From: Alphaproteobacteria bacterium
GTDB taxonomy: Bacteria; Pseudomonadota; Alphaproteobacteria; Rickettsiales; 21-14-0-20-44-7
Direction: 5' to 3'
DNA: 64,000 nucleotides
Assembly: GCA_043757405.1 (NCBI GenBank)
Contig: JAYVPI010000024.1
Coordinates: 16,412 to 80,411 of the forward strand
Shown here: piece by piece, positions 2,563-28,630 of the stretch
Position numbering within the stretch: the stretch's first letter is position 1
Layout of the letters: every line of letters begins with the position of its first letter
Translations under genes and position numbers: made by a program
Notes under the pieces: model-generated
Seen by the model: the letters and a program-made list of their open reading frames with translations, nothing else
What the model was told of the DNA's origin: nothing
The model's database searches: none

Positions 2563-3690
2563 ATGAAAATCTACATCGATTACGTATTAAAAAACCTAGC
2601 CGCCCCAACAGCGTTCATCACCTGTTCGCTGGTCTCTGTCGTGTGGCTGACACAATCCTTGCGCTTCATCGACCTAATCATCAATCAAGGCCTCCCCGTC
2701 TATGATTTCATGCGCCTGATCATCCTCCTTCTCCCCTCCCTTTTCGGCCAGGTGCTGCCCATCGCCATGCTTTGCTCGACAATTTACACCTACAACAAAC
2801 TCAACCACGAAAGTGAGATCCTTGTCCTCAAAGCCGCCGGCGTCAGCCGTTTTGGCATCGCCATCCCTTGTATAATCCTCGCCATTTTCGTCACCATAGC
2901 CGGTTACGCCATCTCCGCCTATTTCCTCCCCGCCTCCTACCGTGAATTCAAAGACACCCAAAATTATTTCCGCGATAACTACGCCTCGTTGATGTTGGAA
3001 GAAGGCATTTTCAATACCCCCTTGAAAGGCGTAATGGTCTATGTCAGAAAACGCGAAACGCCGGATATACTGCAAGGCATCCTGATCCAGGACTCCCGCA
3101 TCCCCAACAAACCAATAACCATGATGGCCGAAAACGCGATGGTCGAACGCGGCGCCAACGGCCTGCAATTCATGCTCCACAACGCCACCCGCCAACAAAT
3201 CGACCGCCGCACCGGCGAAGTCAATTTGCTTTATTTTGATTCCTATCCTTTCGACATGGGCTTTTATACCATTGCCGAAAAAACCCGCGGCCGCAAATCC
3301 GACGAGATGTTCATCAACGAACTCCTCCACCCCGATCCGGCACTCCCCAAAAAGACCCAGCGCAAACAATTAGCCGACGGCCACAACCGCATCCTCTGGC
3401 CCCTAAACAACCTCTCCCTGCCCTTGATGGTAATGGCAATAATGCTTTCCGGTGATTATAACCGCCGCGGCCAATCCCGACGCATTATCACCTGCATCGC
3501 CATCTCAATTGTCCTGATCGCTTCCAGCCTGGCCTTGAAAAACCTGGCCGCCAGCGGCAAAAATTCCGCAATTATCTTGATGTACCTCCCCATGATCTTC
3601 ACCATCCTCATCTCCCTATATACGCTGATAATCGGCAGAAATCCCTTCGAGAAAAAGATCGGTGCGCAACCTTCAATGGAGTTTGCCTAA
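2563..3690 (+). CDS. lptF: LPS export ABC transporter permease LptF
   Basis: YjgP/YjgQ-type layout: N-terminal transmembrane helices, a periplasmic insert, then C-terminal transmembrane helices. Followed directly by its paralogue. Confidence 0.8.
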   Translation: MKIYIDYVLKNLAAPTAFITCSLVSVVWLTQSLRFIDLIINQGLPVYDFMRLIILLLPSLFGQVLPIAMLCSTIYTYNKLNHESEILVLKAAGVSRFGIAIPCIILAIFVTIAGYAISAYFLPASYREFKDTQNYFRDNYASLMLEEGIFNTPLKGVMVYVRKRETPDILQGILIQDSRIPNKPITMMAENAMVERGANGLQFMLHNATRQQIDRRTGEVNLLYFDSYPFDMGFYTIAEKTRGRKSDEMFINELLHPDPALPKKTQRKQLADGHNRILWPLNNLSLPLMVMAIMLSGDYNRRGQSRRIITCIAISIVLIASSLALKNLAASGKNSAIILMYLPMIFTILISLYTLIIGRNPFEKKIGAQPSMEFA

Positions 3691-22300: not shown

Positions 22301-24813
<2,513 letters not shown>

Positions 24814-25002
24814 GATTAGGTCTGTATAGCCGGATTTGCCGTGAAATCTAGAGTTAAGTTAGCGAGTTTGCAATCCCCCAATTGTTTTGCCCCGGCATGT
24901 GACAATCAAGCCTTCACTTATTTACCTATAGAAATGGGCATTTGTCATATTTCTGTCATATCCGTTTGTTATTGTTAACGAACAATTCATTTGGGATATG
25001 TT

Positions 25003-25401
25003 ATGGGAAAATTTAGTCACGACGATGGCGACAAAAAAGCAAAACCAATATATCGCCACATCATGCCAGAATCAGTTGACATTGATGCCTATATGAAAGG
25101 GCTGGAACAAATTTATCGTGCCGCGGATAAGGGCGACGGGTTTTTCAATCTTCACGGCAAACATGACGGCAAGTTATCACGAACTGAATTAAGAGATGCA
25201 TTTGAAGCAAGATATAACATGCCCATAAGCGCCAAACAGGAGGAAGCTCTTGAACGTATCATACCCAAAGAAGGCATTAATATCGATGCCGCCCTACAAA
25301 AAGCCCGCAAACAACTAGAAAAAGCCGATCTTAACCATGACGGCATTTATGACGCAAAAGACCTGCCCAACCCCCCAGCAACGCATCATACGCAGAAATA
25401 A
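25003..25401 (+). CDS. hypothetical protein with EF-hand-like loops
   Basis: DLNHDGIYDAKDL and HGKHDGKLSRTEL resemble 12-residue Ca-binding loops. The first ATG is at 25003; the ORF track uses TTG at 24991. Confidence 0.45.
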   Translation: MGKFSHDDGDKKAKPIYRHIMPESVDIDAYMKGLEQIYRAADKGDGFFNLHGKHDGKLSRTELRDAFEARYNMPISAKQEEALERIIPKEGINIDAALQKARKQLEKADLNHDGIYDAKDLPNPPATHHTQK

Positions 25402-25480
25402 TTATACACTATAATACATCACAAACTCAATCGGATGCGGCGCTGTCTCGTATGTCAACAACCCCTCCCTCTTCAAATCC
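25402..25480 (-). pseudogene. orphan duplicate of the last ~26 codons of glnA
   Basis: Reads [25 protein letters not shown], compared with [25 protein letters not shown] at the true glnA end (26263-26341). The Ser codon differs (AGT versus TCG). Confidence 0.85.
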
Positions 25481-25522
25481 GCGCAGTTTGACTTGCGCTT
25501 CAGACTTTGGTATTATTAACTC

Positions 25523-25735
25523 ATGACATTACAGCAAATTGAAAATCAGGTATCCAACCTCGCCCCCACTGATCTGGCCGCTTTCGCCAAATGGTTCGGC
25601 ACGTTTGTCGCTGCGCGGCTTGATTATGATAATTGGGACATGCAGATGATTGCCGATTCCCAAAACGGGAAATTTGATAAGATAATTGCCAAAGTCGATG
25701 CCAATTTCGAAGCGGGTAAATGCAAACCAGTTTAA
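25523..25735 (+). CDS. putative antitoxin (70 aa) of a ParE-like toxin module
   Basis: Small acidic ORF whose 3-prime end overlaps the start of the toxin-like reading frame by 16 nt. Confidence 0.45.
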   Translation: MTLQQIENQVSNLAPTDLAAFAKWFGTFVAARLDYDNWDMQMIADSQNGKFDKIIAKVDANFEAGKCKPV

Positions 25736-25990
25736 ATCACTTCACGGATCCTGATTACTGGCTTTATTATAAAAATATACCCGAAAACATACTCAAACCG
25801 CGCCGATAAAAACTTTCTGCTCTTGAAAGATAATCCAAGCCATCCGTCGTTACATTTCAAAAAGCTTGATGATAATTTATGGTCGGCGCGAATCGGTTCC
25901 TACCGCGCCGTTGCCAGAAAAAGAAAGGAAGGCTTCATCTGGTTCTGGATCGGCCCGCATGCGGAATATGATAAATTAATTGGGAAATAA
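25720..25990 (+). pseudogene. frameshifted ParE-like/RelE-superfamily toxin gene
   Basis: Frame 1 reads MQTSLNHFTDPDYWLYYKNIPENILKPRR* and stops at 25807-25809. The next frame, from ~25793, reads ADKNFLLLKDNPSHPSLHFKKL..WSARIGSYRAVARKRKEGFIWFWIGPHAEYDKLIGK*. Confidence 0.6.
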
Positions 25991-26260
25991 TTATTGAGAC
26001 TGATTTTTCAATTTCTCATATTGGCGCATTAACGAATACCATAATAATTGGCCAAAGCACAATATTCCCCATATAAATGAAATAATAATACTTATAATAT
26101 GATCACTCGATCCATGATGTGAGTTTACGGATAAAGTAAACTCAAATATTGACATGCCTAATGCCCATATACTTCCATATACAAGCGAAAACCGCCATTT
26201 ACCTAATTTTTTAGTTTTTTCCAGTTTAGCTAATCTCTTTTGCTCTTTTTCTGTAAGCAT
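25991..26260 (-). CDS. small membrane protein, 89 aa
   Basis: Two hydrophobic helices and A+T-rich sequence. Its ATG lies 2 nt downstream of the glnA stop on the same strand. Confidence 0.4.
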   Translation of the reverse strand: MLTEKEQKRLAKLEKTKKLGKWRFSLVYGSIWALGMSIFEFTLSVNSHHGSSDHIISIIISFIWGILCFGQLLWYSLMRQYEKLKNQSQ

Positions 26261-26262
26261 TA

Positions 26263-27708
26263 TTATACCGAATAATACATCACAAACTCAATCGGATGCG
26301 GCGCTGTCTCGTATGTCAACAACTCCTCCCTCTTCAAGTCCATATATGCGTCAATCTGGTCATCGCTGAACACGTCGCCTTTTTTCAAGAACGCGCGGTC
26401 TTTATCCAGTGCTTCCAAAGCCTCGCGCAGTGAACCGCAAACAGTCGGCACATCTTTCAATTCCTCCGGCGGCAAGTCGTACAAATTCTTATCCATCGCC
26501 TCACCCGGGTGAATCTTGTTCTCAATCCCGTCCAGCCCCGCCATCATCATCGCCGCGAAAGCATAATATGGATTGGAAGTCGCATCCGGGAAACGCACTT
26601 CAATCCGTTTCGCCTTCGGTGATGCCACATATGGAATCCGGATCGAAGCCGAGCGGTTACGCGCAGAATATGCCAGCAGCACCGGCGCTTCGTAACCTGG
26701 AACCAAACGTTTGTAGCTGTTGGTAGAAGGGTTGGTAAAAGCGTTAAGCGCCTTAGCGTGTTTGATAATTCCGCCGATGTAATAAAGCGCCATCTCCGAC
26801 AAATCCGCATAACCATTGCCAGCGAAAAGCGGTTTGCCGCCTTTCCATAATGATTGGTGGCAGTGCATGCCTGAACCATTATCGCCAAAAATCGGCTTTG
26901 GCATAAACGTCGCCGTTTTGCCATATGAATGCGCCACGTTATGCACGCAATATTTATAAATCTGCAAATTATCCGCCGTGCGGATTAGCGTCGAAAACTC
27001 AATCCCCAATTCGCATTGCGAAGGCGCAACTTCGTGATGGTGAAGCACCGCTTTCAAGCCCATTTTCTCCATCATCAAAATCATCTCGGCGCGGATATCG
27101 TTCAAAGAATCCACCGGCTGCACCGGAAAATATCCGCCCTTGGTGCGCGGACGGTGGCCATGATTGCCGCCTTCAAATTCATGATCCGACATTTCCGGAT
27201 CTTCAACCGAAGTCACTTGGTAAAATGATTTGGTCTGGTTGGTTTTATATTTCACATCATCGAAAATAAAAAACTCCGCTTCCGGCCCAAAATATGCCGT
27301 ATCGCCGATGCCTGTATATTTCAAATATTCCTCAGCCCGTTTCGCCGTAGAACGCGGATCACGAATATAACCCTGTCCGGTGGAAGGCTCAATTACATCA
27401 CAAAAAATTATCAAAGTAGTCTGCACCGTAAACGGATCCAGAACCGCAGTCGATGCATCCGGCATCAAAATCATGTCCGATTCATTAATCCCCTTCCAAC
27501 CCGCAATCGAAGAACCGTCGAACATAATCCCATCAGAAAACGAATCCTCATTGACGAATGAGGCGCGGTATGAAGTATGGTGAGTTTTGCCGCGCGGATC
27601 AGTAAAGCGGAAATCGACAAACTCGACCTCCTCTTTCTTGATCAAATCAAGCACAGATTTAGCATCGGATTTTGAATCAGATTTTGCCAAAGATTTTTGA
27701 TTGGCCAT
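26263..27708 (-). CDS. glnA: glutamine synthetase type I
   Basis: Motifs [21 protein letters not shown] and [12 protein letters not shown]. Confidence 0.95.
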
Positions 27709-28320: not shown

Positions 28321-28392
28321 TCGCGCTAGAAGCGCCGCGTTAAGTGAGCTGCGGCCCTCAATGGGCCTGGTCGCCCCGCTCCGCCCATAGCA
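28321..28392. repeat. family B repeat, partial inverted copy
   Basis: The reverse complement contains ggcccattgagggccgcagct..cgcggcgcttctagcgcga. Confidence 0.7.
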
Positions 28393-28412
28393 TATATAGT
28401 TACAAAGCCACC

Positions 28413-28511
28413 AATGAGGGAGGGCTTGACCCGACCGAGCGAGCCTAAAATTTTAATCTTGAGGGCGATAGCTGCGCTCTCCGGACGCATGCGCGGCGCT
28501 TAAGCGCAATT
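28413..28511. repeat. family B repeat copy with an internal A/T insertion
   Basis: aatgagggagggcttgacccgaccgagcgagcc[taaaattttaatc]ttgagggcgatagctgc...gcgcggcgcttaagcgcaatt. Confidence 0.85.
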
Positions 28512-28546
28512 GATATTGCCAAAAAAGCCGGAGAAGTGGAAACCTC

Positions 28547-28630
28547 CCTGAGGGAGGGCACTAGACCCGACTGAGCGAGCCCATTGAGGGCGACAGCTGC
28601 CCATAGGGCATGCGCGGCGCTTGAGCGCAA
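28547..28630. repeat. family B repeat copy
   Basis: cctgagggagggcactagacccgactgagcgagcccattgagggcgacagctgcccatagggcatgcgcggcgcttgagcgcaa. It ends exactly at the stop codon of the 28631 gene. Confidence 0.9.

Follow-up and report, generated by a model that had tools for sequence, protein, structure and literature searches.

This study concerns a small cassette that lies directly behind glnA, the gene of type I glutamine synthetase, in an uncultured alphaproteobacterium (NCBI assembly GCA_043757405.1). In the window, that is, the whole 64,000-nt stretch of contig JAYVPI010000024.1 that was analysed, glnA is intact, and its last 25 codons, its stop codon and four further nucleotides are found a second time, in the same orientation, 861 nt downstream. 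The cassette between the two copies carries a toxin-antitoxin (TA) gene pair and a gene for a small membrane protein (Table 1). The region is well supported as a scar that horizontal insertion has left at the glnA 3' end.

The repeat search of the region returned the duplicated glnA end as its one outstanding direct repeat (83 nt, 93% identical), and the pair was also found among the local repeats in a comparison of the genome with itself. The functional copy R1 and the orphan copy R2 agree at 77 of 83 positions, and their six differences leave a core of 52 nt without any mismatch. This core is bounded on one side by a Ser codon, which differs in all three bases (AGT in the orphan, TCG in glnA), and on the other side by a codon that reads GGG in the orphan and GAG in glnA (E to G). 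The other two differences are a synonymous one in an Asp codon (GAT in the orphan, GAC in glnA) and one base just past the stop. The glnA frame upstream of R2 is closed by stops. BLAST of either copy against the 1.86-Mb genome returned no further copy beyond R1 and R2, a search for a third, decayed copy between ctaC and the orphan gave no alignment above shuffled controls, and no flank beyond the repeat is duplicated. The first-pass annotation had described a glnA terminus that occurs twice in direct orientation, with an orphan that encodes the same peptide apart from E to G and that uses AGT instead of TCG for Ser. This description is borne out by the repeat search, the translation and the codons, its coordinates being right within 1-3 nt. 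That annotation had also named the alternative of a local tandem duplication, recognizable by identical flanks past the glnA segment; the repeat alone is duplicated.

Table 1. Features of the glnA-ctaC region, related TA loci and integrase islands (positions are those of the window unless another contig is named).
Feature	Position	Strand	Remarks
ctaC, cytochrome oxidase subunit II	23908..24813	-	gene directly after glnA in all relatives
EF-hand-like orphan gene, 132-136 aa	24991..25401	+	between orphan glnA end and ctaC; Pfam EF-hand matches all below cut-offs
R2, orphan glnA end (DLKREGLL...YYSV*, Ser = AGT)	25398..25480	-	in no open reading frame; equivalent to attR
Core in R2, 52 nt	25411..25462	.	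from the repeat search; Logan contig L131 covers exactly 30 nt of it
Sigma-70-like promoter of the TA operon, TTGACT-17-TATTAT, extended TG	25488..25516	+	consensus match only
Antitoxin gene, 70 aa, intact	25523..25735	+	overlaps toxin start by 16 nt; 28-46% identity to toxin partners in C34, G263, G247 and G013
ParE-like toxin gene, one frameshift near 25798-25803	25720..25990	+	three-frame translation and homologue alignment
Gene of 89-aa membrane protein, two predicted helices	25991..26260	-	ATG 2 nt after glnA stop (TAATAATG)
R1, functional glnA end (25 codons, stop, 4 nt beyond)	26259..26341	-	from the repeat search; equivalent to attL
Core in R1, 52 nt	26272..26323	.	direct comparison of both copies; presumed crossover segment
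glnA, type I glutamine synthetase, 481 aa, intact	26263..27708	-	Pfam Gln-synt_C 7.1e-142, Gln-synt_N 1.7e-31
TA homologue in the same genome, between yidC and rnpA	C34:30177-30630		intact paralogue
TA homologue in G263 (L116)	L116:1292-1755		between nuoB and nuoC
TA homologue in G247 (L117)	L117:1235-1698		between nuoB and nuoC
TA homologue in G013 (L115)	L115:1295-1764		adjoins typA
Island of 6.1 kb, tyrosine integrase	C11:59556-65747		48-nt duplication of tRNA Val-tac 3' end
Island of 7.3 kb, tyrosine integrase	C16:212082-219462		49-nt duplication of tRNA Gly-gcc 3' end
Island of 12.2 kb, tyrosine integrase	C19:18750-31028		40-nt duplication of tRNA Ala-tgc 3' end

The insert between the two copies (25481 to 26262, 782 nt) is 94% coding. 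Its G+C content is 38.9%, and that of the membrane gene 31.1%, compared with 47.8% for the window; this low G+C content supports a foreign composition of the insert. The promoter-like site stands 7 nt from the orphan repeat, and the membrane gene and the toxin gene are convergent, with stops that abut (0 nt between them). The toxin can be read in a first frame from 25720 to a stop at 25807-25809 and then in the next frame to 25990. When the two pieces are joined, the protein aligns over its full length with intact toxins of 84-92 aa (41-48% identity). It scores 20.2-20.4 bits against the Pfam model PF24732 (ParE_like), under the cut-off of 24.4, which the homologue in G263 exceeds with 27.8 bits. 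The 70-aa protein can be aligned to the proteins encoded upstream of the homologous toxins, and the same pairing is found at four homologous loci. From these alignments, the two genes are identified as a predicted ParE-like type II TA operon in which the antitoxin is intact and the toxin is broken once; the frameshift may be a sequencing error. A type II TA module in the strict sense has an intact, active toxin, whereas the frame is broken here. The NCBIfam and PADLOC models gave no match for any cassette protein, and the antitoxin fits no curated family.

With regard to the membrane protein, word-index homology searches returned only self matches, as they did for the antitoxin. An exhaustive HMMER search gave 11 hits for the membrane protein, 10 of which are complete proteins, 86-114 aa long, that share the two-helix layout and the conserved G and W positions, and a profile built from these homologues found 24 proteins. 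The homologues examined (L121-L130) lie in ordinary, non-mobile chromosomal contexts on Bacteroidota-like contigs. There they form a conserved small gene that is divergent from a polyprenyl synthetase gene and adjoins that of a DUF5686/CarboxypepD_reg protein, and that has no Pfam model. These alignments identify the 89-aa open reading frame (ORF) as a real gene, predicted to be a distant member of a rare, uncharacterised family. An apparent homologue on the glnA contig of genome G002 was rejected: both contigs are 11,333 nt long by coincidence. The hallmarks of a transposon are lacking in the cassette, which shows no terminal inverted repeats and no transposase ORF, and which is bounded by an 83-nt repeat with allele differences. 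The first-pass description of the contents, an antitoxin ORF, a frameshifted ParE-like toxin gene and an 89-aa membrane ORF starting 2 nt past the glnA stop, was confirmed.

The state of the locus without the insert can be seen in relatives. In three genomes of the same family (G002, G003 and G004, with glnA 81-85% identical in amino acids), glnA is followed directly by ctaC, ctaD, a major facilitator superfamily gene and a 733-aa gene. Their glnA-ctaC spacers of ~107, 165 and 560 nt, respectively, hold no TA genes, no EF-hand gene and no second glnA end. Two metagenomic contigs, L041 and L052, were retrieved with a degenerate DNA pattern for the glnA tail. Their glnA is 95% and 93% identical to that of the window in amino acids, and ~83% identical in nucleotides in both cases. 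They show the gene order of the window (168-aa ORF, 166-aa ORF, fliS, glnA, ctaC), a single copy of the glnA end and no insert. The direct succession of glnA and ctaC in L041, L052 and G002-G004 identifies these loci as empty sites of the kind that the first-pass annotation had proposed to look for. Because the glnA-ctaC spacers of L041 and L052 measure only 178 and 248 nt, the window carries ~1.45 kb of extra DNA at this place, consisting of the cassette, the orphan end and an EF-hand-like gene.

The window was then set against 89 other glnA loci drawn from relatives, metagenomes and GTDB genomes. Among these 90 loci it is the only one with a downstream copy of its own glnA end (alignment score of 133, compared with at most 27 elsewhere). 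A few apparent extra glnA tails were noted. In G025 C146, such a tail is a fragment with 45% identity where a short contig begins. Others were rejected: those of G009 C5 and L097 are located at contig ends, and that of Bartonella clarridgeiae is a truncated glnA pseudogene. In the latter case (L071 1471-2217; B. clarridgeiae ATCC 51734, NZ_JADC01000016.1), the C-terminal half of glnA alone forms a 248-aa ORF in the middle of the contig, and this has no connection with the cassette scar described here.

The EF-hand-like gene was looked for in L041, L052 and 60 related genomes and was found in none of them. It represents another accessory piece, the second one between glnA and ctaC, and no third copy of the repeat flanks it. 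The glnA-ctaC spacer is thus a place where accessory DNA accumulates in this uncultured alphaproteobacterial lineage.

The origin of the two glnA ends was addressed by comparing them with L041 and L052. Both window copies have AGG where these relatives have ATG, TTG TTG against CTG, and GAG against GAA. Each window copy equals the relatives at 70-74 of 84 nt, compared with 77 of 83 between R1 and R2. Because the copies share these lineage-specific states and match each other over the relatives, the incoming copy would stem from a close relative, and on this comparison the second glnA end came from this lineage or a very close one. The first-pass annotation had suggested that the glnA genes of relatives might tell which copy is native. 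The orphan has the Asp codon of the relatives (GAT) and a Ser codon of the same codon family as theirs (AGT, compared with AGC in L041, L052, G003 and G004), and 9 of the 11 positions past its stop are equal to L052. The functional copy, in turn, agrees with the relatives at GAG. Since some other family members (G002, L057, L038) have a TCN codon for Ser and TCG is the commonest Ser codon of this genome, the comparison points only weakly to the 3' part of the orphan as the native glnA end, now displaced. The insert probably supplied the last three glnA codons with the stop (TCG GTA TAA). When sliding identity to L041 and L052 was followed along glnA, no break appeared that would mark a recombinant 3' segment.

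What the codons do tell firmly is that R1 and R2 were different alleles at the time of their joining, because AGT and TCG differ by a three-base change beside 52 unchanged nucleotides. This excludes both a plain duplication in situ and a fresh target duplication. It is hardly credible that the glnA end was first duplicated in situ, with the two copies diverging and the cassette entering between them only at a later time, although R1 and R2 are each other's closest relatives. Such a course would take three adjacent substitutions, passing through non-Ser codons in a gene under selection, while the 52 neighbouring nucleotides stayed unchanged. It would also have to leave every flank beyond the repeat single, and the relatives, at 89 other glnA loci, are without the duplication.

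Independent sequence data bear on the assembly of the region. The Logan contig L131, from run SRR23617274, equals window positions 23606-25440 with 100% identity and breaks inside the R2 core. Because an overhang of k-1 (30 nt for k = 31) is what a branch would be expected to leave, both left flanks of the core, AGT and TCG, are present in that sample. In other assemblies, no identical protein was on record for glnA, fliS, the antitoxin gene or the membrane gene; of the proteins looked up, those of ctaC and the EF-hand gene alone had a match, on short Logan contigs ending within the repeat. It could be supposed that the assembly merged sequences that do not belong together, be it the glnA ends of two strains or a small replicon of its own, as the genome is a metagenome-assembled genome of 35 contigs and the Logan contigs break at the repeat. 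We consider such an artefact very improbable. The junction 25481/25480 needs a molecule that joins the TA promoter DNA to a glnA-like end, and hence a real recombinant. The identical core of 52 nt is shorter than ordinary reads and than the large k-mers of a final assembly, and the independent Logan contig is identical up to the core. At their other ends, L131 (23606) and L132 (equal to window 23614-24938) break within 8 nt of each other inside ctaD, which suggests a repeat or a strain-variable site there.

Our preferred reading, to which we assign a probability of roughly 45%, is that an enzyme made the insertion and that the region is a reduced site-specific integrative element similar to the cis-mobilizable elements (CIMEs). 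The incoming DNA would have been a compact 782-nt cassette that had beside it a separate copy of the glnA terminus (~80 nt), and this glnA-like end would have stood left of the TA promoter. One crossover of the Campbell type would then have occurred inside the 52-nt stretch common to the incoming DNA and the resident glnA end; it is placed in the core because the allele mosaic flanks these identical 52 nt. As a result, glnA would keep its full frame, and its last codons, TCG GTA TAA, and everything beyond them would derive from the insert. The resident end (AGT GTA TAA and the resident downstream DNA) would be displaced by 861 nt and headed by the glnA-like arm of the insert (GAT...GGG). The crossover would be the work of a site-specific tyrosine recombinase belonging to an element that targets the glnA end and brings a replacement end, and the remainder, presumably after later reduction, would be a minimal integrase-less derivative between attL and attR. 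Afterwards, the toxin would have been inactivated by the frameshift, with the antitoxin left intact. The unit would no longer be self-mobile, and recombination by the host between the 52-nt cores could still remove it.

A site-specific integrase fits the location of the insert, at the very 3' end of a conserved gene, and because the repeat ends just past the stop codon, the insert would carry a replacement end. The same architecture exists with an integrase in this genome, in the form of three tyrosine-integrase islands flanked by duplicated tRNA 3' ends (40-49 nt), and by analogy these may be counted for an integrase origin. The SPbeta-like prophages compared below set a precedent for the site. 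Several observations nevertheless weigh against such an origin. The insert contains no integrase, excisionase, pseudogene debris or non-coding arm DNA, and random decay of a larger island would rarely end so cleanly, with 94% of the sequence coding and the convergent genes touching each other. No parent element with a glnA-like attP was found in the genome, at the 89 other glnA loci, in viral contigs or in plasmids. The assignment of the native copy rests on few sites, and TCN Ser codons are found in the family as well. In addition, related TA genes, described below, occur as bare cassettes in core operons, which shows that integrase-free routes exist for this TA family. An integrase is thus a candidate agent only, and the documented integrase-free route fits about as well. 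Of the first-pass reading of an integrative element that brings a replacement end, the insertion at the glnA 3' end, the preserved frame and the foreign composition therefore stand, while the integrase-borne element is a presumption.

The search for recombinases gave the following picture. No tyrosine (PF00589) or serine (PF00239) recombinase was found on the 115.6-kb contig, in agreement with the first-pass statement that no integrase remains, and no serine recombinase was found in the genome. The loci of the six strongest phage-type tyrosine recombinases were scanned for tRNAs, and all of them lie beside a tRNA gene or a tRNA-like repeat. Further integrases of the genome adjoin tRNA-Val(gac) and tRNA-His. 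Neither a sequence like the glnA core nor a second copy of the cassette was found elsewhere in the genome. The glnA-tail pattern and the antitoxin had no match in viral contigs, and the cassette DNA had none in plasmids. The genome-wide search for integrases and further cassette copies that had been proposed at the outset thus ended with a single-copy cassette and with tyrosine integrases of which all that were scanned sit at tRNA genes or a tRNA-like repeat.

These results bear directly on the first-pass suggestion that the cassette is mobilised in trans. The recombinase would then be encoded by a co-resident element or by the 9% of the genome that is missing from the assembly. The flanking repeats do retain an intact 52-nt core, the organisation is compact and cassette-like, and the genome is only 91% complete. 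This suggestion nevertheless found no support and is decidedly unlikely: the recombinases that were scanned sit at tRNA genes or a tRNA-like repeat and none is a serine recombinase, no core-like sequence exists elsewhere in the genome, no second cassette copy turned up in the genome or in the viral contigs and plasmids searched, and the toxin gene is already broken.

Three kinds of known elements offer themselves for comparison with the cassette as a whole. CIMEs, decayed derivatives of an integrative and conjugative element (ICE) or an integrative and mobilizable element (IME), have lost their integration and transfer genes and have kept attL and attR at the 3' end of their target gene (PMC5704250). 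Like them, the insert is small and integrase-less, lies between direct repeats that take in the 3' end of a housekeeping gene, leaves the target gene intact by means of a replacement end, and carries an addiction module. Integration and transfer genes are lacking, and the TA pair and the membrane gene are its only genes. In contrast to CIMEs, no related ICE or IME and no integrase of matching specificity are known for the insert, and it has no gene debris and no non-coding arms. Its site-specific origin is unproven, and its host is an uncultured alphaproteobacterium rather than a streptococcus. Kinship to an ICE, an IME or a prophage with an integrase for the same site, by which a CIME is recognized, was not seen in the genome, at the 89 glnA loci, in viral contigs or in plasmids.

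The SPbeta-like prophages use a tyrosine integrase to enter the 3' end of glnA in Bacillus, where 106 bp are duplicated and the gene stays intact, and B. subtilis 168 has a degenerate remnant adjoining glnA (bioRxiv 10.1101/2021.11.22.469490). They share with the window the same target gene and the same end of it, a long duplication (106 bp, compared with 83 bp in the window) and an intact glnA. In contrast, these prophages exceed 120 kb, reside in Firmicutes and encode an integrase, whereas the window insert measures 0.78 kb, has no phage gene or integrase, belongs to another phylum and shows no sequence relationship to them.

With regard to the TA genes themselves, the window pair resembles type II systems of the ParE/RelE superfamily (PF24732) in its small upstream antitoxin that overlaps a toxin of ~85-90 aa, in its own promoter, in its patchy distribution and presence on plasmids, and in having an intact paralogue in the same genome. 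It differs from them in its frameshifted toxin, which falls below the Pfam cut-off, and in its antitoxin, which belongs to no curated family. The family is patchy and mobile: within the order, only 4 of the 301 genomes have it, and it turns up on cyanobacterial plasmids too. The intact homologues are bare cassettes of ~0.5 kb within core gene clusters, without flanking repeats or mobility genes. No direct repeats were found around the paralogous and orthologous insertions, and no orphan rnpA end by the C34 paralogue.

This brings in an integrase-free explanation, in which a selfish cassette enters by insertion with long target duplication. Insertion of this type was reportedly described for restriction-modification (RM) gene complexes by Nobusato et al. 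in 2000. Furuta, Abe and Kobayashi found RM cassettes inserted alone between direct repeats of 30 to >400 bp, with a single-copy target in the empty-site genomes (PMC2853133). Some of these repeats overlap the 3' ends of genes, the species are mostly competent ones, and the tabulated repeat pairs are of similar identity to ours, for example 384/412 (PMC2853133). The window agrees with this class in that a selfish cassette of the post-segregational-killing kind stands alone, without mobility genes, between direct repeats within the range of 30-420 bp, in its G+C content below that of the host, and in the overlap with a gene 3' end that some of the repeats show. It differs in its cargo, a type II TA pair and a membrane gene instead of RM genes, on which the class was defined, and in its repeats, which are two alleles (6 of 83 nt differ) and end just past a stop codon.

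Mechanistically, such an insertion would rely on host recombination and repair, e.g. homology-facilitated illegitimate recombination after DNA uptake. The repeat-flanked unit would then spread between strains by homologous recombination, which would produce the AGT/TCG mosaic, the glnA-end copy serving as a portable homology arm. The insert lies within the bounds of the published class, being below 20 kb, free of mobility genes and flanked by a duplication above 30 bp (PMC2853133), and its repeats align to single-copy sequence in the empty-site contigs L041 and L052. Further in favour of this route are the compact cassette without junk or arm DNA, the bare cassettes of the same TA family in core operons, and the lack of an orphan end at the 89 other glnA loci, which gives no sign of a family of glnA-targeting elements. 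However, a true target duplication starts out identical, and the three-base Ser difference therefore requires a second event, the transfer of a pre-formed unit to another strain. The end of the repeat only 4-7 nt past the stop would be a coincidence for an arbitrary staggered target, whereas it is natural for a replacement end that is carried along, and the mechanism of long target duplication is itself unproven. We regard this route as possible and hold to it tentatively, behind the integrase-made insertion.

A more far-reaching variant is that the cassette, even without an integrase, is a self-sufficient mobile unit that uses its copy of the glnA end as a portable homology arm. The unit would loop out across the 52-nt core, travel by DNA uptake and re-insert behind glnA in related cells by means of host recombination, and the DNA breaks made by a ParE-type toxin might help the insertion. 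This is unlikely. If true, it would extend to TA modules the life cycle that Kobayashi's group proposed for RM genes. Such wider value would exist only if integrase-less cassettes with carried gene-end homology proved to be a general and active mode of mobility, which a single locus cannot show.

Several consequences for the cell are expected. The C-terminus of glnA would be unchanged, and its native downstream region would be displaced. In L041, a long, perfect and strong hairpin (CCGTCATCTTGAGCGCAAGCG...CGCTTGCGCTCAAGATGACGG; 3410-3470) stands directly after the glnA stop, in the region that is displaced in the window, and no terminator-like site was found between glnA and the membrane gene in the window. 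Because the native downstream region is displaced and no terminator-like site precedes the membrane gene, read-through from glnA and coupled translation of the membrane gene are predicted as likely. The TA operon converges on the membrane gene. With the toxin broken, nothing would keep recombination between the 52-nt cores from removing the cassette. The window antitoxin is 39% identical to that of the C34 paralogue, and one may speculate that the retained antitoxin still neutralises the paralogous C34 toxin.

On either reading, the locus is a clean and small example of a selfish TA cassette that has settled behind an essential metabolic gene without damage. Owing to the duplicated gene end, glnA is preserved and the recombination event has left a record. 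The glnA-end insertion scar is real and a fairly ordinary outcome of horizontal gene insertion, of a kind that is already known. Upstream in the same gene order, a cluster of REP-like repeats of ~85-125 nt (families D2, D8, D13 and I3) lies at 28321-28630, between fliS and the 166-aa ORF, and copies of these repeats occur elsewhere on the contig.

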